Shown here piece by piece: positions 3,521 through 50,798 of a stretch of DNA of 64,000 nucleotides. This DNA comes from Gemmatimonadales bacterium. Its GTDB lineage: Bacteria; Gemmatimonadota; Gemmatimonadetes; Gemmatimonadales; GWC2-71-9. Both the position numbers and the translations under genes were made by a program. Numbering within the stretch: position 1 is the first letter of the stretch; every line of letters starts with the position of its first letter. The stretch lies in contig JBAUHI010000076.1 of NCBI GenBank assembly GCA_049680185.1, forward strand, positions 4,339 through 68,338, given 5' to 3'. The notes below the pieces were generated by a model. The model had not been told where the DNA came from. It saw nothing but the letters and a program-made list of their open reading frames with translations, and ran no database searches.

Positions 3521-4393
3521 TCAGCGCGCCGGGTCGAGCATGTCCTCGAACCGGAGCCACCGTTGATAAAAGTACAGGTCGATGAACCCGGTGGGTCCGT
3601 TCCGGTTCTTGGCCACGAGTAGTTCCGTCGCACCTTCCATCCCCCCGCCCGGCCGGTACATCTCCTCCCGATAGAGCGCCAGCACCACGTCGGCGTGTTG
3701 CTTCACCTGTCCCTTCCCGCCCAGATCGTCCAGGGTGGGCCGCGGGTCATCCCGGGTCGGGACGTGGTCGGGCAGTTGGGCCACTGCGAGCACGGCAGTG
3801 TCGAACTCCAACGCCAACGCCTTGAGTCCTCGCACTGCCAACGCCGCGGCGTCCTCCGCCGACCCGGCCGCCACCGGTGGTGCCACGAGCTGGAGGTAGT
3901 CCACCACCAGGAGCGCCGGGCGAGGCACCACGCGCAAGGCCTCTCCGATCTCGGAAAAGGTCCTCCCGGCCAGGGGCTGGATGATGAGTGGCAGGTCGCG
4001 CAACCGGAGCGCGGCGGCCCCCACTTGTGCACGACGTAGGTCATCGAGCTTGCCACCCCTCAGTTCATCGATGGTGGCCCGGCCCTCGATGGCGAGCGCT
4101 CGTTCCAGCACCCGGTCATCCGACATCTCGCCGGTGAGGAACACTACCGGCGCGCCGGACGCCGCCGCGCGCAGCGCCATCCCGAGCGCCAGCGCCGACT
4201 TCCCGCTCCCGATGTCGCCGCCCAGCACCACCAGGTCGCGGCGTCGAAGTCCACCGCCCAAGAGCCGGTCGACGCTGGCAAATCCGGTCGCCACGGTGTC
4301 CTGGGGCGGGGCTCCATCGGCCACGGCGTCGCTTCTGGCGACGAGCGATTCGGCAGATGCGCGGGGCGGGCGTTTGCGGGACGGGGCGGGCAT
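3521..4393 (-). CDS. DnaB-helicase C-terminal (RecA-fold) domain protein lacking the DnaB N-terminal domain
   Basis: GFASVDRLLGGGLRRRDLVVLGGDIGSGKSALALGMAL (Walker A), LLVVDYLQLV (Walker B-like), and the C-terminal NRNGPTGFIDLYFYQRWLRFED typical of DnaB. Only 290 aa. Confidence 0.7.
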   Translation of the reverse strand: MPAPSRKRPPRASAESLVARSDAVADGAPPQDTVATGFASVDRLLGGGLRRRDLVVLGGDIGSGKSALALGMALRAAASGAPVVFLTGEMSDDRVLERALAIEGRATIDELRGGKLDDLRRAQVGAAALRLRDLPLIIQPLAGRTFSEIGEALRVVPRPALLVVDYLQLVAPPVAAGSAEDAAALAVRGLKALALEFDTAVLAVAQLPDHVPTRDDPRPTLDDLGGKGQVKQHADVVLALYREEMYRPGGGMEGATELLVAKNRNGPTGFIDLYFYQRWLRFEDMLDPAR

Positions 4394-39435: not shown

Positions 39436-40683
39436 TCATTGCGCCATCGTGGCGAAGAACTCCTTGTTGTTCTTCGTCCGCTTCATCCGCTCGAGGAGGA
39501 ACTCCAGGGCCTCGACCGGCGGCATGTCGGCCAGGAAGTTCCGCAGCAGGTACACCCGGTTGAGCTCGTCCTTGTCCATCAGGAGCTCTTCCTTGCGGGT
39601 GCTGGTGCGCTGGATGTCGATGGCGGGGTAGATGCGGCGGTCGGCCAGGCGCCGGTCGAGGACCAGTTCCATGTTGCCGGTGCCCTTGAACTCCTCGAAG
39701 ATCACCTCGTCCATCCGGCTGCCGGTGTCGATGAGCGCCGTCGCGATGATCGTGAGCGAGCCGCCCTTGTCGATGTTGCGCGCGGCGCCGAAGAATCGCT
39801 TGGGCTTCTGCAACGCGTTGGCGTCCACGCCGCCCGAGAGGATCTTGCCGGAATGCGGTACCACCACATTGTGCGCCCGTGCCAGCCGGGTGATCGAGTC
39901 GAGGAGGATGACGACGTCCCGACCGTGCTCGACCAGCCGCTTCGACTTCTCGATGACCATGTCGGCCACCTGCACGTGGCGGTCGGCGGGCTCGTCGAAG
40001 GTCGAGGAGATGACCTCGGCCTTCACATTCTCCTGCATGTCGGTCACTTCCTCGGGCCGCTCGTCGATGAGCAGGACGATGAGCGTGATCTCGGGGTGAT
40101 TCTCGCTGATGGCATTGGCGAGCTTCTGCATCAGGATCGTCTTGCCGGCCTTCGGCGGCGCTACGATCAGGCCGCGCTGCCCCTTGCCGATGGGCGAGAG
40201 AAGATCCACCACCCGCATCGACAGGTCCTGGGTCTTCCGCTCCAGGCTGATCCGTTCATCCGGATAGCGCGGCTTCAGGTTGTCGAACGCGATCCGATGC
40301 TTGGTCTTCTCGGGCTCCTCGTAGTTGACGCTCTCGACCTTGAGGAGTGCCAGGTACCGCTCGCCTTCCTTCGGCGGCCGGACCTGTCCCATGACGGTAT
40401 CGCCGGTGCGAAGGTCGAAGCGCTTGATCTGGCTCGGGCTGACGTAGATGTCGTCGGGCCCGTAGAGGTAGTTCCAGTCCTGGCTGCGAAGGAAGCCGTA
40501 GCCCTCGGGGAGGATCTCGAGCACCCCCTCGCCGCGAATGACCGTGTCCGAGTCGAGCAGGGTCTGCTCGATGCGGAAGATCAGGTCCTGCTTCCTGAGC
40601 CCCGAGTAATTGAGGATGTTGAGCTGCTCGGCCAACGCGTGCAGCTCGGCGACGGACTTTTGCTTGAGTTCTGCGATATCCAC
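39436..40683 (-). CDS. rho: Transcription termination factor Rho
   Basis: EGYGFLRS (RNA-binding domain), [16 protein letters not shown] (Walker A), [10 protein letters not shown], classic C-terminus. GTG start at 40683. Confidence 0.95.
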
Positions 40684-40996
40684 TGGGCGGATGCTCCGCT
40701 GGGCGGGGGCCGGCGCGGGGGCACCGGTGCCACTGGCTTCAGGTGTGGGGGAACGGCAGGTCGGAAACAGTGTCGGTCCGCAACGGGCGCGGCGCCGGGA
40801 TCAGGCTCTATGGGATTGGGAAGGATGGTGAGTCACTGGATGCGGCCCTAAGGTAGGATGCCGCCCCGCCTCCGTCAAGCGACCGGCGGTTGGTCCGGTG
40901 TCCCACCCTATTGCCTAAGTCCAAGGGTCTCCCTAGCTTAGGGCTGTACCCCATGTCCGGCCGGTGTCCGGTCCTGCCCCAGGTCAAGGACGGTCG

Positions 40997-41287
40997 ATGC
41001 CCGCGCAACCAGCCCGACAACCCCTCCGCGAACCCCGCGCACCGTCCGTCCACGAACTCCCGCCGTTCCGGTTTGATGGCCTGACCATCGATGTCCGCGC
41101 CACCGTCCTGCGGGGCGAGGATGGCGTGTGGCGCGGTCGGCTCCACTTCCTGGGTGGCGTGGATGGGCCCGACGCCGAACGGCAGACCGCCGAGATCTTT
41201 TGCGCGGCGACGGAGAACGAGTTCTGGGATTCGGTCCGCGGACTCGGCCCCCACCACGTGCGCGACCTCTACCGCTCCCTTCTTTAG
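40997..41287 (+). CDS. Hypothetical protein (96 aa)
   Basis: ATG at 40997 with AAGGA 7 nt upstream. ...FRFDGLTIDVRATVLRGEDGVWRGRLHFLGG...FWDSVRGLGPHHVRDLYRSLL. Globular-looking composition, no recognised domain. Confidence 0.55.
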   Translation: MPAQPARQPLREPRAPSVHELPPFRFDGLTIDVRATVLRGEDGVWRGRLHFLGGVDGPDAERQTAEIFCAATENEFWDSVRGLGPHHVRDLYRSLL

Positions 41288-41302
41288 CCGGGCGGAACCG
41301 GA

Positions 41303-41485
41303 ATGACCGACGCCGAACGCCTCCACACTCTCCGCCACGACATCGCCAACCCCCTGTCCGCACTCCTCGCCGAAGCGCAACTGCTCTTGCTCAACGACAG
41401 CAAGCTCGATCCTGAAGTGGCGGGAAGCGTGCGGGAGATCGAGAAGCTTGCCCTGCGGATGCGCGCATTGCTTCGGGATATCTGA
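41303..41485 (+). CDS. Stand-alone HisKA/DHp-like domain protein (60 aa)
   Basis: MTDAERLHTLRHDIANPLSALLAEAQLLLLNDSKLDPEVAGSVREIEKLALRMRALLRDI. H-box-like LRHDIANPLSAL followed by a second helix. No sensor or ATPase domain. 15 nt downstream of the 96-aa ORF. Confidence 0.6.
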   Translation: MTDAERLHTLRHDIANPLSALLAEAQLLLLNDSKLDPEVAGSVREIEKLALRMRALLRDI

Positions 41486-41594: not shown

Positions 41595-43334
41595 TCAGGC
41601 GTCAGGGACGTCCCGGCGGTGGCGCCAACCGTTCGTGAGGTAGAGCACCAGGAAGACGGCACTGAGCCCGCTGATCAGGAGTCGCTCGGTCATCCCCGCA
41701 TCACTCGCCGACGCCAATCCCTCGATCGTTCCCGCTACCACCAACAGGACCACGGTCGCACCGACCATCGGGATCGCACCCCGGCCGGCCAGCCTCACCG
41801 CCTCGCCGCGCGAGTGATCGCCCGGCGCCACGAGTGCGAACCCGAGCTGGAAGCCCGCTGCGCCCGCGACCGCGATGGCGAAGAGTTCCAGTATGCCGTG
41901 GCCGATGATGAACGCCATCAGGTAGCCGAGCACACCAAGGTTCGCGAAATGGGCCGCCGAGATCCCCAGCGTGGCGCCGTTGGTGGCAAGCAGAAAGAGC
42001 GACCCCACTCCCAGGAAGATGCCGCCGGCAAAACAGGCGAACGCGACCCGGACGTTGTTGCCGATGATGGCCGCGGCGGTCGCGGGGCGGTCCTCCGGGG
42101 CGGCCTCGTAGTACGTGAGCCCGCGATCGATCCGCGTCTTGGCGCTCGCTGCGCGTTCAAGCATCAGGTCAGGGAGCAGTTCGTACGCCAGCCCGGGGCG
42201 CTCCCGGACGATGGTCCACCCAACGGCCGCCGGCACGAAGAGGAACACCAGCGCCAGGAGCACGGTGCGCCAGGCGTTCACCACCGCCGCCGGACAGCGC
42301 CGCCACGCGAGTTCCGTGAGTCGGGTGAGCGAGCGGGGTGGCTCGCGGTAGAGCGCATTGTGGCCGGCCGCGACCAGCCGTTCCAGTCGGTCAAGAGTCG
42401 CTTCCGGCGCATTGTAGGTCCGCGCGCGGGCCAGGTCGGAGGAGACCTCGCGATAGCGGGCGGCAAAGTCGATGAGGTCGGGTGCGCTGAACGTGTCCAG
42501 TCCGCGGGAGTTCGCCGCCCGCGCCAGCACCTCGAACGCATCCCAGCGGTCCCCTTGTCGCTCGGCGAGCTGGAATGCCGTCCGCTCCTCGGCATCGCCG
42601 CCGCCGCTCGCCCGGGCGGCCCGCTCCGCATCATACAGTCCGCTCAGGAACGTGGCGTCATCGGAGGGACGCTCGGGCCAGCGCGCCGCGAACCGGGCGG
42701 CGAGCGCCACACGTATCCGTGCGCCTGCCGCCGGATCGAGATCCTTGACGCGTTCTTGAAATGACTCGAGCCACGCGTACTCGGCGGGTTCGAGCCGGGC
42801 CAGCGCGGTGGTGGTCGTGGCGGGAACGTGGGGACGATGGCGTGCATCGAAGGGGCGGTCACGGACCACCAGCGTGCCGGCGGCCAGGTCGCCGAGGCGC
42901 CGGGCGCGCGGATGGAAGAAGAGGAAAAGGAATCCGGTCACGTAGGGTGGTGGGAAGAAATCCGCCAGCCGCACGATGTTCCGGACCACGACGGGGCCAA
43001 ATCCGGCGGGATGTCCGGTGATGCGCACGACCCGGATCCCCACCAGTCGCTTGCCGGGAGTCTGCCCCTGCCACCACGATTCGAACCCGATGAAATAGCC
43101 GAGGGCCACCACCGCCGACAGCGCGATGACTCCGGCGCTGGCCAGGGACCCGAGCGGGAACACGCGCAGCGCCGAGAGGCCGATCAACGCCGCGATGAGG
43201 ATGCCGTGGTCGATCGCGGATGCCAGGCTGCGGGAGCCGATCCGGGCCGCCTCGTACCCGAGGGTCACCGATTCCGGCGTTTCGACCTGATGCCGGGAGC
43301 CTAAGTCCACGCGGGAGATGGGGGCGCGCGCCAT
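41595..43334 (-). CDS. Membrane protein: N-terminal RDD domain fused to SpoIIM-like (DUF95) domain
   Basis: ATG at 43334. RDD part: SAIDHGILIA...GQTPGKRLVGIRVV...RNIVRLADFF...GDLAAGTLVV. C-terminal part: multi-TM with IGHGILELFAIAVAGAAG, typical of SpoIIM/DUF95. Confidence 0.7.
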   Translation of the reverse strand: MARAPISRVDLGSRHQVETPESVTLGYEAARIGSRSLASAIDHGILIAALIGLSALRVFPLGSLASAGVIALSAVVALGYFIGFESWWQGQTPGKRLVGIRVVRITGHPAGFGPVVVRNIVRLADFFPPPYVTGFLFLFFHPRARRLGDLAAGTLVVRDRPFDARHRPHVPATTTTALARLEPAEYAWLESFQERVKDLDPAAGARIRVALAARFAARWPERPSDDATFLSGLYDAERAARASGGGDAEERTAFQLAERQGDRWDAFEVLARAANSRGLDTFSAPDLIDFAARYREVSSDLARARTYNAPEATLDRLERLVAAGHNALYREPPRSLTRLTELAWRRCPAAVVNAWRTVLLALVFLFVPAAVGWTIVRERPGLAYELLPDLMLERAASAKTRIDRGLTYYEAAPEDRPATAAAIIGNNVRVAFACFAGGIFLGVGSLFLLATNGATLGISAAHFANLGVLGYLMAFIIGHGILELFAIAVAGAAGFQLGFALVAPGDHSRGEAVRLAGRGAIPMVGATVVLLVVAGTIEGLASASDAGMTERLLISGLSAVFLVLYLTNGWRHRRDVPDA

Positions 43335-43439
43335 CGGGGAATGATAGCGTTCGCGGGGCTTGCGGGTGGGCGCTGGTGGCAGCAACGTCCCCCAGTGGTG
43401 CGCCCGTCCTTGGACCATGCCCCCGAACCACTACTGGAG

Positions 43440-44357
43440 ATGCCGATGGCCGACCTTGCGATGCGTCCATTGTCGGTAGGTGAGATCCTGGATCGGTCAT
43501 TCGCGTTGCTCCGTGCCAGGTTCGGTGCGCTCTTCCTGGTGGGGCTCGCGTGTTTCGTGATCCCGATCTTCCTCGCCGTCGGCAGCCTGGCGGACTTTTC
43601 CCAGCTCTCCCAGCAGGCGACCGTCGCGCAACCGGCGCAGATGGACCTCGCACTCGGGATGCTCGGGAGACTCTTCTGGGTCGCGTTGGTGGCGTTCTTT
43701 GGATTCATCGTTGCCCGTGGGGCGTGGGTCCATCTCGTATCCGAGACCATTCTGGGACGCGACGCCGGCGCGGGGGTCGCGCTCCGCCGCGGGCTGTCCA
43801 CGGCGCTGCCGATGGCCGGCCTCAGCTTCCTCGAGGGTGCGATCTTCTTCGGCATCTACCTCGGGCTCGCACTGCCGACCTTGCTGGTCGTCTCCACGGT
43901 GTTCCACGGCACGCCGCTGGCCGCGGTCGCGCTGGTCACCGTCGTCGTGCTCGGCGGGATCGTTCTGGCCGCGTGGGTCTACGCCGGGCTCTATGTCGCG
44001 GCGCCGGCGCTGGTCCTGGACCGACCCACCGGTGTGATGCACGCGCTCTCGCACTCGTGGGCGCTCAGCCTTGGCCGCCGCGGCGCCATTCTCTCGATCA
44101 TCTCCCTGCTCGCGGTCCTCGCGCTGCTCGTCCAGCTTGCGGTGGCCCTTGGATTGGGCACATTCGGGAGCACCATCGGTGCGGGTCCCCAGGTGCTGGG
44201 CCCGATGGCACTCTTGAGCTTCGGCTTCACGGCACTCTTCCAGATCGTGCTGGCCGTCCTCGGCTACGTCATCCAAACGGTGATGTACTACGACCTGCGC
44301 GTCCGGAAGGAGGGCCTGGATCTGGAACTGATGGCTGGCGCACTGGGGCACGACTGA
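43440..44357 (+). CDS. Polytopic membrane protein (GlpQ-membrane-domain/DUF-type), hypothetical
   Basis: LSVGEILDRSFALLRARFGALF..., six or more hydrophobic segments, ends YYDLRVRKEGLDLE. The start (ATG 43440 or 43446) is uncertain. Confidence 0.6.
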   Translation: MPMADLAMRPLSVGEILDRSFALLRARFGALFLVGLACFVIPIFLAVGSLADFSQLSQQATVAQPAQMDLALGMLGRLFWVALVAFFGFIVARGAWVHLVSETILGRDAGAGVALRRGLSTALPMAGLSFLEGAIFFGIYLGLALPTLLVVSTVFHGTPLAAVALVTVVVLGGIVLAAWVYAGLYVAAPALVLDRPTGVMHALSHSWALSLGRRGAILSIISLLAVLALLVQLAVALGLGTFGSTIGAGPQVLGPMALLSFGFTALFQIVLAVLGYVIQTVMYYDLRVRKEGLDLELMAGALGHD

Positions 44358-44987
44358 TTGGGACCGCACCCCGTCACCGCGGACTCGCTCCGCACGGTGC
44401 TTGATTCGGTCTTTGCCAACGCGGCGTACGCGTGGCACGCCGTGCCCGCCAGCGTCGAACCCGTCTGGATCCGATGGCTTCGCGACGTGATCAAGTGGGT
44501 GGCAGGGCTGTGGCAACGCCTGACGGGACACGGCGGCGTCGGGTCGTCGGCGATCCCGTGGGTGTTGATGGGCATCGGCATCCTCCTGCTGGTGCACGGA
44601 CTATTCCGGATCGCATCGTCGGCGCGGGTGGCGCACGAAGCGGCGCTCGCCCATGGCGCCCTGCCCGGTACGCGCCACGATGACTCGTGGTTCCGGCAGC
44701 GTGCCGATGCGCTCGCCGCGGAGGGTCGCTTTGCCGAGGCGATGGTGGCGGCCTTTCACGGCATGATGTGGCGGCTGGACCAGCGCGGAATGGTGGCCCA
44801 CCACCCGAGCCGCACGCCGCGCGAGCTGGCCTGCGACGCCAAGGTCGGCGCGTCCGACGGCCGCACATTGGCGGTCCTGGTGGGACAGCTGTATGCTGGC
44901 GCCTTCGGTGGCCTGCCGATCGATCCGGCCCAGTACACTGCCTGGCTGATAACCCTCGACCAGCTGCGCGATGCGCCCGCGCGCTGA
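44358..44987 (+). CDS. DUF4129-like membrane-anchored protein
   Basis: TTG start abutting the upstream stop. One TM (WVLMGIGILLLVHGLF), then ...HHPSRTPRELACDA...GQLYAGAFGG, resembling the DUF4129 C-terminal pattern. Confidence 0.55.
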   Translation: MGPHPVTADSLRTVLDSVFANAAYAWHAVPASVEPVWIRWLRDVIKWVAGLWQRLTGHGGVGSSAIPWVLMGIGILLLVHGLFRIASSARVAHEAALAHGALPGTRHDDSWFRQRADALAAEGRFAEAMVAAFHGMMWRLDQRGMVAHHPSRTPRELACDAKVGASDGRTLAVLVGQLYAGAFGGLPIDPAQYTAWLITLDQLRDAPAR

Positions 44988-46197
44988 GCTGGGCCTGGCC
45001 CTGGCGCTCGGCGCGGTCGCGGCGGCGGGGCTCGCCGTCCACGCGTTCACTACCCCCGGTGCCCGTGCACTCGATCGCCGGCGCAGCACCTACCTGACCG
45101 GACCCACGGGGGCCCGGGCGTGGGTCGATGCCCTCGACCGTCTTGGCGTGACCACCGAGCGCTGGCGCCGACCCGTGGAGGTGCTGCCGACCCGTTACCC
45201 TCCGCACCAGATCCCGCTCTACGCCGTGCTCGAACCGGCGGTGCCGCTCTCATTCTTCGAGGCGCTGCAACTGGAACGATGGAGCCAGCGGACCGGCGAC
45301 CTGCTGCTGGCCGGCGCGGGGACCGACGCGGCGATGCGCTGCTTCGGGTGGGAGGTGACACCGGTCGAGCTTCGAGGGACCGCCGCCGACCTCAAGGCCG
45401 CAGGTCGGGTGGGCCAAGTGGCGGTGTCCCTCACCCAGGTCCACGCGGTGCTTACTCCTACCCGCACCGACACCGCTGATCGTCCGTCCAGTGCGGCCGA
45501 CCTTGGCGTGCTGCGCTGCCGGTCGCCGAAGCCGCTCGGGGTCGATACGTTGCTGAGGACGCCGAGCGGCGAGCCGGTGGCGGTCCGAGTGCGGGTCGAT
45601 CCCGCGACGCGGATCACCTTGGTGGCCGATGGACTGCTCTTCGCGAATGACGCCATGCGACGGTCCGACGCCGGGGAATTCTCGCTGGCGCTGGTGGTGC
45701 CGAGGTATCGTACGGTATTGGTGGATGAGTACCATCAAGGGTACAGCAGCGGGGGAACGCTCACCGGAGCGGTGCTGGCTTGGAGCGCGGAGTCGCCGTG
45801 GGGATGGGCGGCCTGGCAACTGGTGGTCGTCGGGCTCCTGGCGCTCCTGGTCGCGGCAGTGCGATTTGGCCCGGTGCTGCAAGACAGTGACCAGGAACGC
45901 CGCTCGCCGATGGAGCACGTCCACGCACTGGCCACGGCACTCGGCTCAGCGCGCGGACACGATGTCGCCGCGAGGCTGATGGTGCAGGGCCTGCAGCGAC
46001 GGCTGTCGGGTGAGCACCAGCCCCAGCGGCGATCGGTCGAGGGATGGCTGGCGCAGTTGGCGGAGCGAGTGCGCTCGCCTCGGGCCCGCGCCGCCGTCAA
46101 GGAATTGCAGTCGCTCATCGACCCGCCCCAGCCAGCCGATGCCGTGCTGCGTGCGGCCTACGCCGTGGAGGATGTGTGGCAGGAATTGAAGCGCTGA
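44971..46197 (+). CDS. DUF4350-like protein
   Basis: N-terminal TM, ...LVADGLLFANDAMRRSDAGEFSLALV...VLVDEYHQGY, late TM WQLVVVGLLALLVAAV. Its position between DUF4129 and MoxR matches the known conserved cluster. Confidence 0.55.
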   Translation: MRPRAELGLALALGAVAAAGLAVHAFTTPGARALDRRRSTYLTGPTGARAWVDALDRLGVTTERWRRPVEVLPTRYPPHQIPLYAVLEPAVPLSFFEALQLERWSQRTGDLLLAGAGTDAAMRCFGWEVTPVELRGTAADLKAAGRVGQVAVSLTQVHAVLTPTRTDTADRPSSAADLGVLRCRSPKPLGVDTLLRTPSGEPVAVRVRVDPATRITLVADGLLFANDAMRRSDAGEFSLALVVPRYRTVLVDEYHQGYSSGGTLTGAVLAWSAESPWGWAAWQLVVVGLLALLVAAVRFGPVLQDSDQERRSPMEHVHALATALGSARGHDVAARLMVQGLQRRLSGEHQPQRRSVEGWLAQLAERVRSPRARAAVKELQSLIDPPQPADAVLRAAYAVEDVWQELKR

Positions 46198-47156
46198 CGC
46201 CGGACGCTGCCCGCGGCCTGTCGGAGGTGGCGCGCCGGATCGAGCGAGAGGTGGCGACGGTCGTCCTCGGACAGCCGGAGGCCGGGCGCGACATCGTGGT
46301 GACGCTGATGGCTCGCGGGCACGTGTTGCTCGAAGGCGTGCCAGGCACCGCCAAGACCCTCCTGGTCCGGGCGCTGGCCCGCGCGGTCGGGGTCGGCTTC
46401 CGCCGGATCCAGTTCACTCCGGACCTGATGCCGTCGGACATCACGGGCGTCAGTCTCCTCACCGGGCAGGGGCAGTTCACCTTCCGGGCCGGCCCGATCT
46501 TCTCCGACTTTGTCCTTGCCGACGAGATCAACCGCGCGCCTGCGAAGACGCAGGCGGCACTGCTGGAGGCGATGCAGGAACGCAGTGTCACCATCGACGG
46601 CGAGTCCCATCCGCTGCCGGTGCCATTCACGGTGTTCGCGACGCAGAACCCGGTGGAATTCGAGGGGACCTATCCGCTGCCCGAAGCGGAGCTCGATCGG
46701 TTCCTGGTCAAGGTGCTGGTGGGTTATCCCGATGCCACCGCCGAACAGGGGATCCTGGCCCGGGTGCTCGGCGGATTCGAGTCCGACGATCCGTCCAGCT
46801 TCGGCACCAAGGCGGTGCTCGATGCCAAAGGGCTGGCCGAATTGCGGGCCGCGACCCGTGCGGTCCGGGCCGAACCGGCTGTGACGCAGTATGTGACCGC
46901 ACTCGTGCGTGCCACTCGCGGGGCGCCCTCGCTCTCGATGGGCGCCTCACCCCGGGCCACGGTATCACTCCTCAAGGCGAGCCAGGCCGCCGCACTCCTC
47001 GAGGGACGCGAATACGTGACGCCCGATGACGTGAAGGCGATGGCCCCGGCGGTGCTCCGGCATCGAGTGGTGGTGGCACCGGAGCTCGACCTCGAGGGGC
47101 TTTCGCCCGATAGCGCGCTGGAGGGGATCCTGCGGTCCGTTGAGGTACCGCGCTGA
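46176..47156 (+). CDS. MoxR-family AAA+ ATPase
   Basis: VLLEGVPGTAKTLLVRALA (Walker A), LADEINRAPAKTQAALLEAMQE (Walker B/sensor), ATQNPVEFEGTYPLPEAELDRF. The start is inferred at the in-frame GTG 46176. Confidence 0.88.
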   Translation: MAGIEALTPDAARGLSEVARRIEREVATVVLGQPEAGRDIVVTLMARGHVLLEGVPGTAKTLLVRALARAVGVGFRRIQFTPDLMPSDITGVSLLTGQGQFTFRAGPIFSDFVLADEINRAPAKTQAALLEAMQERSVTIDGESHPLPVPFTVFATQNPVEFEGTYPLPEAELDRFLVKVLVGYPDATAEQGILARVLGGFESDDPSSFGTKAVLDAKGLAELRAATRAVRAEPAVTQYVTALVRATRGAPSLSMGASPRATVSLLKASQAAALLEGREYVTPDDVKAMAPAVLRHRVVVAPELDLEGLSPDSALEGILRSVEVPR

Positions 47157-47198
47157 GACGCGACGAATAACGATCATTCACCATTGCCTGGAGTCCAT

Positions 47199-49148
47199 AT
47201 GCGCGTCCGCTCGTCCGTCCTCTTCGTCCTGATCGGCCTCATGCCGGTGCCGATCGTGGCGCAGCAGCCGCCGCGTGCGGTGCGCCGCACCATTCCGATC
47301 ACCCGCGCCTTCGCCGCCGGGCTCGCCTCGGGCGCCCGGGATTCCCTCGGCACGCCAGGGGCCAAGTACTGGCAGCTGAGCACCGACTACGTGATCGATG
47401 CTAAGCTCGATGTCACCACCGGGCTCCTCACCGGCCACGAGACCGTGACCATCACCAATCCGAGCGACTCGACGCTCGGCGTGGTGTACATCCGGCTGCT
47501 CCAGAACCTCTTTGCCCCCGATGTCGAGCGAGCCGAGACCGTCCCCGAACTTACCGATGGGATCAAAGTCACCCGGCTCGTCGCCAACGGCACTGCGGTG
47601 AATGTCGACAGCGTGGCGGCACAATGGAGTCACACGACCATCGTCCGGGTGCGGCTCAAGCAGCCGATCCCTGCGCACGGGAACGGGACCCTTGAGGCCG
47701 ATTGGTCGTTCACTGTTCCCAATGTGCCGCTCGATGAGCGGGGGGAGCGGATGGGCGACTGGGGCCACCGTTTGTACCAGGTGGCGCAGTGGTATCCGCA
47801 ACTGGCGATGTACGACGACCTCCGCGGCTGGAACACTGATCCGCATCTCGGCACAGCGGAGTTCTTCAACAACTTCGGTTCGTTCGACGTGCACCTCGAC
47901 CTGCCCGCCGGATGGCTCGTCGGCGCCACCGGTGTGCTCCAGGACCCTGATTCGGTCCTCACGCCGATGGTGCGGCAGCGGCTGTCCCACGCCACTGACA
48001 GCGACAGCCAGATCAGCATCGTGACGGCCGATGAACGCGGGGCGGGGAAGGCCACCCTGGCCGGCGATCGGTTGATGTGGCACTTCAAGGCCGACAGCGT
48101 CGCCGATTTCGCGTGGGCCACCTCCAACGAGTACGTCTGGGACGCCACCCGTGCCACGATCCCCGGGAAGGGCGTCATCCCGATCAACCTCTTCTACTGG
48201 CCGGAGCACACGGAATACAAGAAGACGGGCGTCTACGCCCGGCACGCGCTCGAGTTCTACTCGAAGCTCTGGATGCCATACGCATTCCCGCAGCTGACCC
48301 AGGTGGATGGTCCCGAGGGCGGGATGGAGTATCCGATGTTCATCATGAGCGGCGCCGGACGCGGGGTGACTGACCATGAGACGGGGCACGAGTGGTGGCC
48401 GATGATGGTGGGCGTCAACGAGACCTGGTACGGCTGGATGGATGAAGGATTCAACCAGTACATGAATCGGCTCTCGGATTTCGACTTCCACCGCCAACCC
48501 GCCAACAACGATTCGCTGGGGCAGGCGTACGGCCGAGTGTCGGGTCGTGAGACCGAGCCGATCATGATGTGGGATGGGAACTACGCCGGTCCGATGTACA
48601 GCTTCACCACCTACGGCAAGGCGCCGCTCATGCTCTCCGCGCTCGGTGGCATCGTGGGAGACACCGCCGTCTGGCATGCGATGAGTGTGTACGCCCACGC
48701 CTGGCGCTTCAAGCATCCCTCGCCGTGGGACTTCATGTTCGCGATGGACCATCAGCTGCATCGCGACCTGGGGTGGTTCTGGTATTACTGGCTCTTCACC
48801 ACTGAATCGGTGGACGGGTCGATCAGCAAGGTGGCCGTCAAGAACGGGCGGACGCTCGTCACCGTGCACCAGGCGGGAGAGATGCCTTCGCCGGTGGTGC
48901 TGCGGGTCGAGTTTTCCGTGGATGGTCCCGCCATCCGGCCGATGAAGAACGCGGTGATCTCGGGGAATGCCGCGACCGTGACCTGGCCGGTGGATGTCTG
49001 GTTCGGCGGCGCGCGCGACTTCACGGCGTCACTCGACTTCGGGGGCCGCAAGATCGAACGCATCACCCTCGATCCGGGGATGCGCTTCCCGGACCGCGAT
49101 CCAGGTGACAACAGCTGGCCCCGCACCCCGGTGCCGCCGGCGAAGTGA
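47199..49148 (+). CDS. Secreted M1-family zinc metallopeptidase
   Basis: ATG 47199 with GGAG upstream. Signal peptide MRVRSSVLFVLIGLMPVPIVAQQ. HETGHEWW-x-E: HExxH plus a Glu 19 residues after the second His (HExxH-X18-E). Confidence 0.85.
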   Translation: MRVRSSVLFVLIGLMPVPIVAQQPPRAVRRTIPITRAFAAGLASGARDSLGTPGAKYWQLSTDYVIDAKLDVTTGLLTGHETVTITNPSDSTLGVVYIRLLQNLFAPDVERAETVPELTDGIKVTRLVANGTAVNVDSVAAQWSHTTIVRVRLKQPIPAHGNGTLEADWSFTVPNVPLDERGERMGDWGHRLYQVAQWYPQLAMYDDLRGWNTDPHLGTAEFFNNFGSFDVHLDLPAGWLVGATGVLQDPDSVLTPMVRQRLSHATDSDSQISIVTADERGAGKATLAGDRLMWHFKADSVADFAWATSNEYVWDATRATIPGKGVIPINLFYWPEHTEYKKTGVYARHALEFYSKLWMPYAFPQLTQVDGPEGGMEYPMFIMSGAGRGVTDHETGHEWWPMMVGVNETWYGWMDEGFNQYMNRLSDFDFHRQPANNDSLGQAYGRVSGRETEPIMMWDGNYAGPMYSFTTYGKAPLMLSALGGIVGDTAVWHAMSVYAHAWRFKHPSPWDFMFAMDHQLHRDLGWFWYYWLFTTESVDGSISKVAVKNGRTLVTVHQAGEMPSPVVLRVEFSVDGPAIRPMKNAVISGNAATVTWPVDVWFGGARDFTASLDFGGRKIERITLDPGMRFPDRDPGDNSWPRTPVPPAK

Positions 49149-50461
49149 TCCCGCTCCCGACCCGTCGGTGGCTCCGGATCGCCGCCGGGCTCGCCATCGT
49201 CGCACCCCTGGCGCTGGTCTGGCCGGGGGCCGCGGCGGCAGTGCTCGTGGTGGATCTCCTCTGGGTCGGCGCCTTCTGGCTTGATTGGTCGCTCTCGCCC
49301 GATGCGGAGGATATCTCGGTCATTCGCGAGGCACCGACGGCATTCAGCGTCGGGCGCTCCTTCCCGGTGCGATATCGATGGTCTCGCAACAGCGCGGCCC
49401 CGTTCTTCGCGTTGGTGCGCGAGGAATGTCCGGCGCCACTCGTCGAGGGCCCGAGCCCAGTGCGGCGCCTCCGAGTCCCTCCGGAAGGCGCCATCGAGAT
49501 CATCACCATCCATCCGATTCGACGGGGTCGCGGAAGCGCCGGTGCATTCTCCCTTCGGCTCGGCGGTCCGCTCGGTCTCGCGTGGTCACAGGGAACGATC
49601 GAGCTTCCCTGGACCGCGACGGTCTTTCCCGACCTGAGTGCAGTGGCGCTGCACGCGCTGCCCACCCAATCAGCGCGGCGGCGAGAGGCGGGGCTCCGCA
49701 ACGTCCGACGGCTGGGCGAGGGGCGCGTCTTCGAGACCCTGCGCGACTGGGTCCCCGGCGATGACGTCCGCAGCATCGACTGGAAGGCCACCGCGCGTCG
49801 CGGCAAGACGATGGCGCGCCAGTACGAGGATGAGCGTCGGCAGCAGGTGCTCATCGTGATCGATGCCGGCCGGATGCTCACCGCGGAGGTGCGCGGACGC
49901 CCTCGGCTCGAGTCGGCGATCGATGCGGCGCTCCAGCTCGCCTGGACCGCCATCGAGGGCGACGACAACGTCGGACTGCTGGTCTTTGCTGACACCATCC
50001 AGCATTGGCTCCCGCCGCGCCGCGGGAAGCGGGCGTTGCAGGGGATCCTCGAAGCGCTCGCCACCGTCGAAGGGAAGCTGGTCGAACCCGACTATCCGGG
50101 TGCGTTCACACATTTGGCGCTCCGGAACCGGAAGCGCGCGCTGACCGTGCTCTTCACCGACGTGATCGACCGTACTGCCAGTGATGCGCTGCTGGCACAA
50201 GCGGGAACACTCCGTCCGCGTCACCTGCCGCTGGCCGTGACATTCCGGAACCCCGAGCTCGAGGCGCTGGCGCTTCGTCCACCGGAGAGCGTCGAGGAGG
50301 CGTACGAACGTGCCGCGGCGGAGGAGCTTCTGGTGTCGCGGGCCGAGGCGCTGGCGGTGGTTCGGAGGCGAGGGGTGCTGGTGCTTGACGTTCTGCCCGA
50401 AGGTGCCGCCCGTGCGGTGGTGGAGCGGTACCGGCAGCTCAAGCGGAGAGGGATGTTGTAG
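49145..50461 (+). CDS. DUF58 (vWA-like) protein, usual MoxR partner
   Basis: GTGA overlap with the peptidase gene. Two N-terminal TM segments. FETLRDWVPGDDVRSIDWKATARRGKTMARQYEDERRQQVLIVIDAGRMLT (DUF58 signature). Confidence 0.85.
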   Translation: MIPLPTRRWLRIAAGLAIVAPLALVWPGAAAAVLVVDLLWVGAFWLDWSLSPDAEDISVIREAPTAFSVGRSFPVRYRWSRNSAAPFFALVREECPAPLVEGPSPVRRLRVPPEGAIEIITIHPIRRGRGSAGAFSLRLGGPLGLAWSQGTIELPWTATVFPDLSAVALHALPTQSARRREAGLRNVRRLGEGRVFETLRDWVPGDDVRSIDWKATARRGKTMARQYEDERRQQVLIVIDAGRMLTAEVRGRPRLESAIDAALQLAWTAIEGDDNVGLLVFADTIQHWLPPRRGKRALQGILEALATVEGKLVEPDYPGAFTHLALRNRKRALTVLFTDVIDRTASDALLAQAGTLRPRHLPLAVTFRNPELEALALRPPESVEEAYERAAAEELLVSRAEALAVVRRRGVLVLDVLPEGAARAVVERYRQLKRRGML

Positions 50462-50464
50462 GGG

Positions 50465-50544
50465 GGTGAACGGTCAACGGTGAACGGGCCCTCGGTCGAG
50501 ATTCTGCCTGGGGACCCGTTCACCGTTCACCCTTTACCGTTCAC
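50465..50544. repeat. Heptamer-array inverted repeat element, copy E
   Basis: GGTGAACGG TCAACGG TGAACGG GCCC -26 nt- GGGA CCCGTTCA CCGTTCA CCCTTTA CCGTTCA C. It lies in the convergent gap, and its last unit contains the DUF4031 stop codon. Confidence 0.85.
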
Positions 50545-50798
50545 TTCCTCTGCGCCTGCAGGTGCTGGATAAGGTCGCGGGTCCGCTCGAACACGGTCAC
50601 CTCAGGATCCACCAAGGCGCGTTCTCGCGGCTCGAGCTTGAGGTCGAGGTGCACGCGGTGGCCGTCCCCGAACTGCAGCGCCCGCGGCGGGGCACCGACC
50701 CGCACGCGGAGCTCCTCGAGTTCGGTCAGGTCGTCGGTGTCGCTCACGACGTGAGACCATCCCCGCGCCAGCAGATTCTCCCGGTCCATCAGCAGCAT
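50541..50798 (-). CDS. DUF4031-like small protein (85 aa)
   Basis: ATG at 50798: MLLMDRENLLARGWSHVVSDTDDLTELEELRVRVGAPPRALQFGDGHRVHLDLKLEPRERAL... resembles the DUF4031 pattern (W-H-L/V-x-S/D ... HYDL). The rest of the 198-aa track ORF is not credible. Confidence 0.55.
   Translation of the reverse strand: MLLMDRENLLARGWSHVVSDTDDLTELEELRVRVGAPPRALQFGDGHRVHLDLKLEPRERALVDPEVTVFERTRDLIQHLQAQRK

Follow-up and report, generated by a model that had tools for sequence, protein, structure and literature searches.

INTRODUCTION

What is a gene for an exported metallopeptidase doing between the moxR and DUF58 genes of a membrane-protein operon? The question is raised by a stretch of 64,000 nucleotides (the window; positions 4,339 to 68,338 of contig JBAUHI010000076.1, GenBank assembly GCA_049680185.1) from an uncultured member of the Gemmatimonadales, whose metagenome-assembled genome (MAG) amounts to 2.66 Mb; all of the genomes compared with it here are also MAGs. 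In one neighborhood of the window, six families score above their curated Pfam cut-offs, namely, RDD, SpoIIM, DUF4129, DUF4350, AAA_3/AAA_lid_2 (a MoxR-type ATPase), and DUF58. The mycobacterial counterpart of this module is the Rv3689-Rv3695 region with MoxR2. In the literature searched, we found neither an experimentally assigned function for the module nor a description of an embedded M1 peptidase; searches on DUF4350/DUF4129/DUF58 and on MoxR with aminopeptidase gave incidental mentions only. An earlier reading of the window from its letters alone (the sequence-only reading) had singled out the peptidase gene, along with a fused RDD-SpoIIM protein, and had proposed that the peptidase is a client or effector of the MoxR system. 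Here, we present evidence that the peptidase is a long-standing, fully integrated operon cistron in part of one Gemmatimonadales family (soil bacteria) and that, of the module and the peptidase, neither needs the other.

RESULTS

A peptidase gene at the moxR-DUF58 junction

The gene order and orientation of the module are the same in 20 loci from relatives and in 80 Gemmatimonadales loci, usually beside rho. The latter were collected by scanning GTDB species genomes with a DUF4350 alignment as the query, and 73 of them could be judged. The window departs from the norm of the module in that moxR is not directly coupled to the DUF58 gene, whereas the two abut or overlap in 57 of the 73 related loci; since a peptidase gene of 1950 nt lies between them, the window represents a variant of the module. 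The peptidase occupies exactly this junction in 16 of the 73 judgeable loci, and no other gene type was found there in any of the 80. As the sequence-only reading had stated, the gene lies precisely between moxR and DUF58, its stop codon overlapping the GTG start of the latter (GTGA).

In a first sample of 40 relatives, the MoxR-peptidase-DUF58 order was seen in five genomes of the window's genus only; MoxR abutted DUF58 in three other genomes of that genus and in a dozen other genera, and peptidase orthologs with 55-68% identity were sited elsewhere. A recent insertion confined to part of one genus was, however, overturned by about a dozen further loci in the DUF4350-centered scan, and the DUF4350 proteins of the 16 peptidase-bearing loci are only 42-48% identical to that of the window. 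The arrangement is thus found in several genera and not in this genome only, and the restriction to a single genome that the sequence-only reading had named among its grounds for refutation does not apply.

A third sample, drawn evenly over the family (151 genomes, 78 genera, with the module judged by its DUF58 ortholog), contained the module in 88 genomes, the peptidase orthogroup in 31, and both in 16. Among these 16, the peptidase is embedded in 6 (genera g1, g13, and g35), that is, in 6 of the 88 module-bearing genomes, and unlinked in 10. Co-occurrence is not enriched, the module being present in 16 of the 31 peptidase-bearing genomes versus 88 of the 151 overall; because related genomes are not independent, all of these counts are descriptive only. 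Even within g1, g13, and g35, the peptidase is present in some genomes and absent from others. Outside the phylum, the matches listed include orthologs from the Acidobacteriota, Planctomycetota, Bacteroidota, and Rhodothermales (47-58% identical), none of which has MoxR or DUF58 within 4 kb.

Integration into the operon

The peptidase gene has its own ribosome-binding site, GGAG, six bases upstream of its ATG. At its other end, the DUF58 protein begins (M/V-I-P-L-P-T-R-R-W) at the same GTG in relatives, including those without the peptidase. A consensus scan found no promoter-like or terminator-like site in the moxR-peptidase spacer, nor any inside the operon. The RNA fold of the spacer (z +1.6) is less structured than its shuffles and contains no stable hairpin; a strong hairpin is found only after DUF58, and none occurs between moxR and the peptidase gene. 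A promoter or terminator belonging to the peptidase was therefore discarded, and its integration into the operon, claimed by the sequence-only reading, holds: nothing resembling a promoter or terminator precedes the gene, and the GTGA overlap follows it. From this layout, we infer that the gene would be co-transcribed with the module and translationally coupled to DUF58.

In another lineage, which is the largest peptidase-bearing group, the spacer is replaced by an ATGA overlap of the moxR stop and the peptidase start, and the overlap of the peptidase stop with the start of DUF58 reads ATGA or GTGA. Three loci (L100, L105, and L128) carry two tandem peptidase copies, the first copy of L128 being disrupted, and L096 has a truncated first copy and a second one running off the contig. 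Tandem copies in this group overlap each other.

Yet another embedded lineage has a moxR-peptidase spacer of approximately 100 nt (L110:5174-5272 and L123:12129-12239). In L110, the spacer holds an inverted array of GTCGCAG/CTGCGAC heptamers, and in L123, it holds related repeats of the GCGAC/CGACT type. These belong to a heptamer family other than the GTGAACG repeats found downstream of DUF58 in the window and stand in the same kind of position, after a stop codon. They could uncouple the expression of the peptidase from that of moxR.

A probable single capture and repeated losses

In the peptidase tree, all of the embedded copies fall into one 29-row clade (support 100/100), and orthologs sited elsewhere form a separate 13-row clade. 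One embedded clade, together with the lack of any other gene type at the junction, argues for a single capture. The two types of tandem copy split before the largest group (the L100, L105, and L128 lineages) diversified. Overlaps at both ends of the gene and tandem copies point to one old capture followed by full integration into the operon.

Losses from an embedded ancestor are documented by scars in three loci of the largest group. L133 keeps the last bases of the peptidase open reading frame (GAGGCCGCAC..TGATG), with the gene gone; L101 keeps the ATGA start and a 9-codon peptidase remnant; and L099 keeps a fragment of the peptidase gene coding for WPR.

Nested in the embedded clade are copies from genomes in which the peptidase and the module are not together. 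Four of these, which group in a single subclade (99/98), belong to genera g17 and g40; two are from g29, a genus without the module; and two come from genomes (G149 and G064) whose module lacks the peptidase. The peptidase gene of g17 and g40 comes directly after rho, a short gene, and a 60-aa HisKA-like gene, precisely the place that the module holds in other genera. The module is missing altogether from g17 and g40, and in genome G024, where the peptidase stands alone beside rho, no remnants of module genes were found at E ≤ 10.

Two further observations concern the mobility of the peptidase gene. MoxR (..APR*) and members of the peptidase orthogroup (..WPR*) share a Pro-Arg-stop ending (CCN-CGN-TGA), as in the peptidase C terminus at L097:14060-14085; speculatively, this microhomology could have helped the original capture. 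In G012 (L011), two genes that adjoin each other in G000 (C71:25819-28229) are separated by a peptidase ortholog of the clade sited elsewhere, which indicates that the orthogroup moves, or is cleanly lost, at other loci too. Of contigs C13 and C3 of G024, one ends in, and the other begins with, the same peptidase region (L051:10488-12407 and L052:410-2351); the second copy is split by a frameshift, and the duplication probably reflects a redundant assembly or variation between strains.

An M1-type zinc peptidase with a signal peptide

The chain starts with a hydrophobic signal, MRVRSSVLFVLIGLMPVPIVA followed by QQ, and a transmembrane (TM) scan shows no other membrane segment. On inspection of the sequence, the N terminus (MRVRSSVLFVLIGLMPVPIVAQQ) carries no twin-arginine (Tat) consensus. 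The S/T-R-R-x-F-L-K motif is absent from the window peptidase and from most embedded orthologs, the signals of which are short and Sec-like. The signal of the window enzyme accordingly looks Sec type, not Tat type.

The zinc site, HETGH at 393-397 with E416 (HEXXH-x18-E), is invariant in 21 aligned homologs and present in all 48 of the 48 sequences checked. Y472 is the catalytic tyrosine; it is also invariant and aligns with the Tyr of YSKG in glutamyl aminopeptidase (4kx7). The exopeptidase motif deviates from the canonical GXMEN: it reads xGMEY (375-378), followed by P, with a variable first Gly (G/L/N/T), Tyr in place of Asn, and an invariant Glu.

Used as a single sequence, the protein scores 26.2 bits against Pfam Peptidase_M1 (PF01433), just under the gathering cut-off of 27.7, and has no match in NCBIfam or in PDB sequence searches. 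A profile of the 21 homologs, in contrast, matches M1 catalytic domains in the PDB (best E, 2e-12), among them those of glutamyl aminopeptidase, IRAP, APN, ERAP1/2, tricorn factor F3, and LTA4 hydrolase (E of ~1e-12). The AlphaFold2 model (pLDDT 88) gives Foldseek matches to APN, ERAP1, IRAP, and PSA (E 2e-24; TMq 0.55-0.60). In this model, the layout of secondary structure would fit domains I-III, with an N-terminal beta domain, a thermolysin-like catalytic domain, and a C-terminal beta-sandwich; the predicted chain ends after the beta-sandwich, so the helical domain IV appears to be missing. The kinship with M1 enzymes thus rests on the profile search and the predicted fold and not on the single-sequence Pfam score. 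The M1 assignment of the sequence-only reading is borne out in these respects and in the zinc site, whereas the subthreshold Pfam score and the xGMEY motif depart from the family standard.

Compared with M1 aminopeptidases such as APN/PepN, ERAP1, IRAP, and LTA4 hydrolase, the window enzyme shares HEXXH-x18-E, the Glu of the exopeptidase motif, and the catalytic Tyr in a Y-x-K context, and its modeled layout would be consistent with domains I-III. It differs from them by the predicted lack of domain IV, by xGMEY instead of GXMEN, by its signal peptide, by an identity of merely 10-15% to solved structures, and by the Pfam score under the cut-off.

The peptidase belongs to an expanded family, with about 10 matches in this MAG and ~10 paralogs per genome in the order; at the other MoxR loci of the same genome, no M1 paralog adjoins. 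A GC dip over the gene had suggested a recent foreign origin. This was rejected, as its G+C content at third codon positions (GC3, 0.862) is like that of its neighbors (0.80-0.855), and it is codon positions 1 and 2 that lower the GC, as they do in the paralogs.

Layout of the locus

The features of the locus are listed in Table 1. Every gene lies where the sequence-only reading had placed it, and Pfam scans agree with its domain assignments. It had recognized the six families and missed the polytopic gene that opens the operon.

Table 1. Features of the RDD-SpoIIM/DUF4129/DUF4350/MoxR/peptidase/DUF58 locus, in window coordinates
Feature	Position	Strand	Evidence or remarks
RDD-SpoIIM fusion, 579 aa	41595-43334	-	Pfam RDD E 2e-21, SpoIIM E 3e-31; ATG start giving MARAPIS
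Divergent intergenic region, 111 nt	43335-43445		Presumed promoters for both transcription units
Polytopic membrane protein, 303 aa, ~6-7 TM helices	43446-44357	+	TM scan; first operon gene
DUF4129 protein, 209 aa, one TM helix	44358-44987	+	Pfam 27.0 bits (cut-off 24.8)
DUF4350 protein, 408 aa	44971-46197	+	Pfam 39.3 bits (cut-off 30.4)
MoxR-type AAA+ ATPase, soluble	~46176-47156	+	Pfam AAA_3 E 1e-60, AAA_lid_2 E 5e-22
moxR-peptidase spacer, 42 nt	47157-47198	+	AT-richer; GGAG at 47190-47193
Exported M1-type zinc peptidase, 649 aa (1950-nt gene)	47199-49148	+	Fold, profile, catalytic residues (export predicted)
DUF58 protein, 438 aa	49145-50461	+	Pfam DUF58 E 2e-30, VWA_2 E 1e-5
GTGAACG-heptamer hairpin	50459-50550	+	Begins at DUF58 stop codon; RNA fold

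Promoters in the divergent intergenic region are presumed from the gene arrangement, and a scan of this region for the sigma-70 consensus gave no match. The polytopic gene, which has a GGAG 6 nt upstream of its ATG, keeps its position in nearly all related Gemmatimonadales loci; its product matched no Pfam family (up to E ≤ 5) and no NCBIfam family. The genes that follow are tightly packed. The DUF4129 start abuts the polytopic stop (TGATTG), the DUF4129 and DUF4350 genes overlap by 17 nt, and moxR likely starts at GTG 46176, inside the 3' end of the DUF4350 gene, its alignable sequence beginning at 46194. The MoxR protein is 64-95% identical to those of relatives, and the DUF4350 alignment contains 35 invariant columns.

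According to the TM scan, the RDD part of the fusion has 2-3 TM helices and is joined by a soluble linker of ~200 aa to a SpoIIM-like part with 5-6 TM helices. DUF4350 would begin with a TM helix or signal, which a ~260-aa extracytoplasmic domain separates from a second TM helix and the cytoplasmic tail behind it, and DUF58 would have an N-terminal TM hairpin and a cytoplasmic vWA-like domain. The hairpin after DUF58 has a folding energy of -56.4 kcal/mol (z -8.0), with 0 of 200 shuffles equally stable; it is probably the 3' end or a stabilizer of the operon transcript.

On the other side of the locus, rho (415 aa, 93-97% identical across genera) is the fixed neighbor of the module. It is followed by a 107-aa gene without known family and by the 60-aa stand-alone HisKA-like gene. 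Synteny of these three genes (window 39436-41485) extends over many genera, irrespective of whether they are followed by the module, by the peptidase alone, or by both.

Comparison with known modules

The second feature that the sequence-only reading had found striking, the fusion of RDD and SpoIIM in one divergently transcribed protein of 579 aa, is real and is not exceptional. The fusion has at least 1539 homologs, of which the top 120 all carry PF01944+PF28475+PF06271, and every related locus has the gene in this fused, divergent form, the usual architecture of the lineage. In the precomputed annotation of the homologs, PF28475 is listed between RDD and SpoIIM, so the ~200-aa linker may already be a named domain. 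The distinctive part of the locus is therefore the peptidase only, which is not unique to this genome.

The locus shares with the conserved RDD/SpoIIM/DUF4129/DUF4350/MoxR/DUF58 module its six families, the packing of the genes from the polytopic protein to DUF58 on one strand, and the combination of a cytoplasmic ATPase with five or six membrane proteins. It differs in the fused and divergent RDD-SpoIIM gene, normal in the Gemmatimonadales, and in the predicted exported M1-type peptidase that parts MoxR from DUF58.

Bat (Bacteroides aerotolerance) operons contain vWA membrane proteins of the BatA/BatB type and TPR proteins. The window operon resembles such Bat or MRP-type MoxR-DUF58-vWA operons in that a MoxR ATPase gene is followed by DUF58 in an envelope-associated operon. 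Unlike them, it has neither BatA/BatB-type vWA membrane proteins nor TPR proteins, ends in a hairpin after DUF58, and includes RDD-SpoIIM, DUF4129, and DUF4350 as partners. A defense-system interpretation of the MoxR-vWA pair was also dismissed: PADLOC returned two weak generic AAA matches to MoxR (E 4e-5 and 2e-4) and none for the other six proteins.

DISCUSSION

We regard it as moderately likely that the locus is a lineage-specific variant of a widespread inner-membrane module with a co-expressed, optional accessory periplasmic peptidase. In an ancestor within one Gemmatimonadales family, the gene for a Sec-exported M1-type zinc peptidase would have been captured once, exactly at the MoxR-DUF58 junction, and would have become a regular operon cistron. 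It would most likely be transcribed from the divergent promoter region together with the genes for the polytopic protein, DUF4129, DUF4350, MoxR, and DUF58 and be translated from its own GGAG site, the end of its translation re-initiating that of DUF58 via the GTGA overlap. The enzyme would then be exported to the periplasm, with MoxR and the vWA domain of DUF58 on the cytoplasmic face. It would be made whenever the module is made and may contribute, from the periplasm, to the process that the module serves.

Several observations weigh against this scenario. In the lineage of the window, the 42-nt spacer with its own ribosome-binding site leaves room for a weak internal promoter. The module tree places the peptidase-bearing loci in three groups among peptidase-free loci, implying at least 4-6 changes of state, and the deep branching of the peptidase clade is a polytomy, deep nodes being poorly supported in both trees. 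With such state changes and such a polytomy, one capture with many losses is not cleanly separable from a spread between modules by homologous recombination. Furthermore, in G003, G005, and G008, the sister species of the window's subclade, the GTGA junction is clean and bears no scar, which, in this lineage, fits loss and gain by recombination equally. Finally, that the gene has long stayed at one position is not in itself proof that linkage is selected.

In a different account, the peptidase is a neutral passenger that landed at a permissive junction of a well-expressed operon, persists there only because clean excision is rare, and shares only a transcript with the module. We consider it possible but somewhat unlikely. 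Repeated loss with scars fits such a passenger, as do the retention of the gene without the module in g17 and g40, its unlinked position in 10 of the 16 genomes with both, the lack of co-occurrence enrichment, and the orthologs in other phyla that, among the matches listed, have no MoxR or DUF58 neighbors. The orthogroup is, moreover, usually present in a single copy per genome, embedded or elsewhere, which suggests the same job whatever the position. A passenger is harder to reconcile with a junction that, over 80 loci, is held by this one gene family only and with a peptidase that stayed in place while diverging to about 58-66% identity. Likewise, the double ATGA overlaps of one lineage and the retained tandem copies look like maintained coupling.

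The alternative raised by the sequence-only reading is a direct link to MoxR. As a client, the peptidase would be folded, metallated, or passed to the translocon by MoxR-DUF58 before or during export, in the manner of RipA and MoxR1 in mycobacteria. RipA copurifies with MoxR1, and its secretion in E. coli needed the RipA-MoxR interaction (PMC4810496); the ripAB genes adjoin the moxR1-DUF58 operon (PMC12067865). This is the only experimental precedent for a peptidase-MoxR pair in the literature searched, and the enzyme family, the export route, and the operon type are all different there. At both loci, the gene of an exported peptidase adjoins a MoxR-DUF58 pair, and in the window, it lies exactly between the ATPase and its vWA partner, to which it would be coupled. 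However, RipA is a Tat-dependent NlpC/P60 cysteine peptidase acting on peptidoglycan, in contrast to an M1-type zinc enzyme with a Sec-like signal; ripA lies upstream of moxR1 rather than between moxR and DUF58; and the moxR1 operon is of the MRP/vWA type, without RDD, SpoIIM, DUF4129, or DUF4350. Of the traits that would assimilate the window peptidase to RipA, a Tat signal is lacking, and so is phyletic dependence on MoxR (16/31 versus 88/151). A Sec-like signal would imply that the chain crosses the membrane unfolded and folds in the periplasm, where a cytoplasmic AAA+ protein could not reach it. In addition, close orthologs persist in the module-free genera g17, g40, and g29 and in genomes with an unlinked module, and in the family sample, the module occurs without an embedded peptidase in more than 90% of cases (embedded in 6 of 88). 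All this makes a client quite unlikely.

The peptidase could instead be a dedicated periplasmic effector that binds DUF4350 through the extracytoplasmic domain of the latter, or else binds DUF4129 or RDD-SpoIIM, so that its activity on envelope substrates is gated by ATP hydrolysis, relayed by the membrane proteins. The predicted topology is compatible with such docking, given the ~260-aa domain of DUF4350 between two TM helices and the predicted export of the peptidase, and the lack of the domain IV cap may leave room for a partner to close the active site. Long-term operon integration also agrees with it, whereas the frequent loss of the gene and its survival without the module do not. No feature specific to embedded peptidases turned up in passing, no search having been aimed at one, and we hold an effector of this kind to be highly improbable.

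Frequent loss, persistence without the module, lack of tracking of the module, and a Sec-type signal thus make the step from gene order to a MoxR client or effector a weak one. Indeed, the module has lost the peptidase more than once, two genera retain the enzyme although the module is gone, and 10 of the 16 genomes with both carry them unlinked, features that agree better with an optional accessory enzyme. Since the peptidase is optional and survives without the module, MoxR clienthood is not to be assumed from gene order alone.

If the peptidase were a true working partner after all, that is, a periplasmic enzyme controlled by the cytoplasmic MoxR-DUF58 motor via DUF4350/DUF4129/RDD-SpoIIM, which we judge unlikely, it would, together with RipA-MoxR1, point to regulated envelope proteolysis as the function of a module found in many phyla. 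An enzyme of predictable chemistry that has long been coupled inside the operon constitutes a natural experiment, and it may offer a first biochemical handle on the module.

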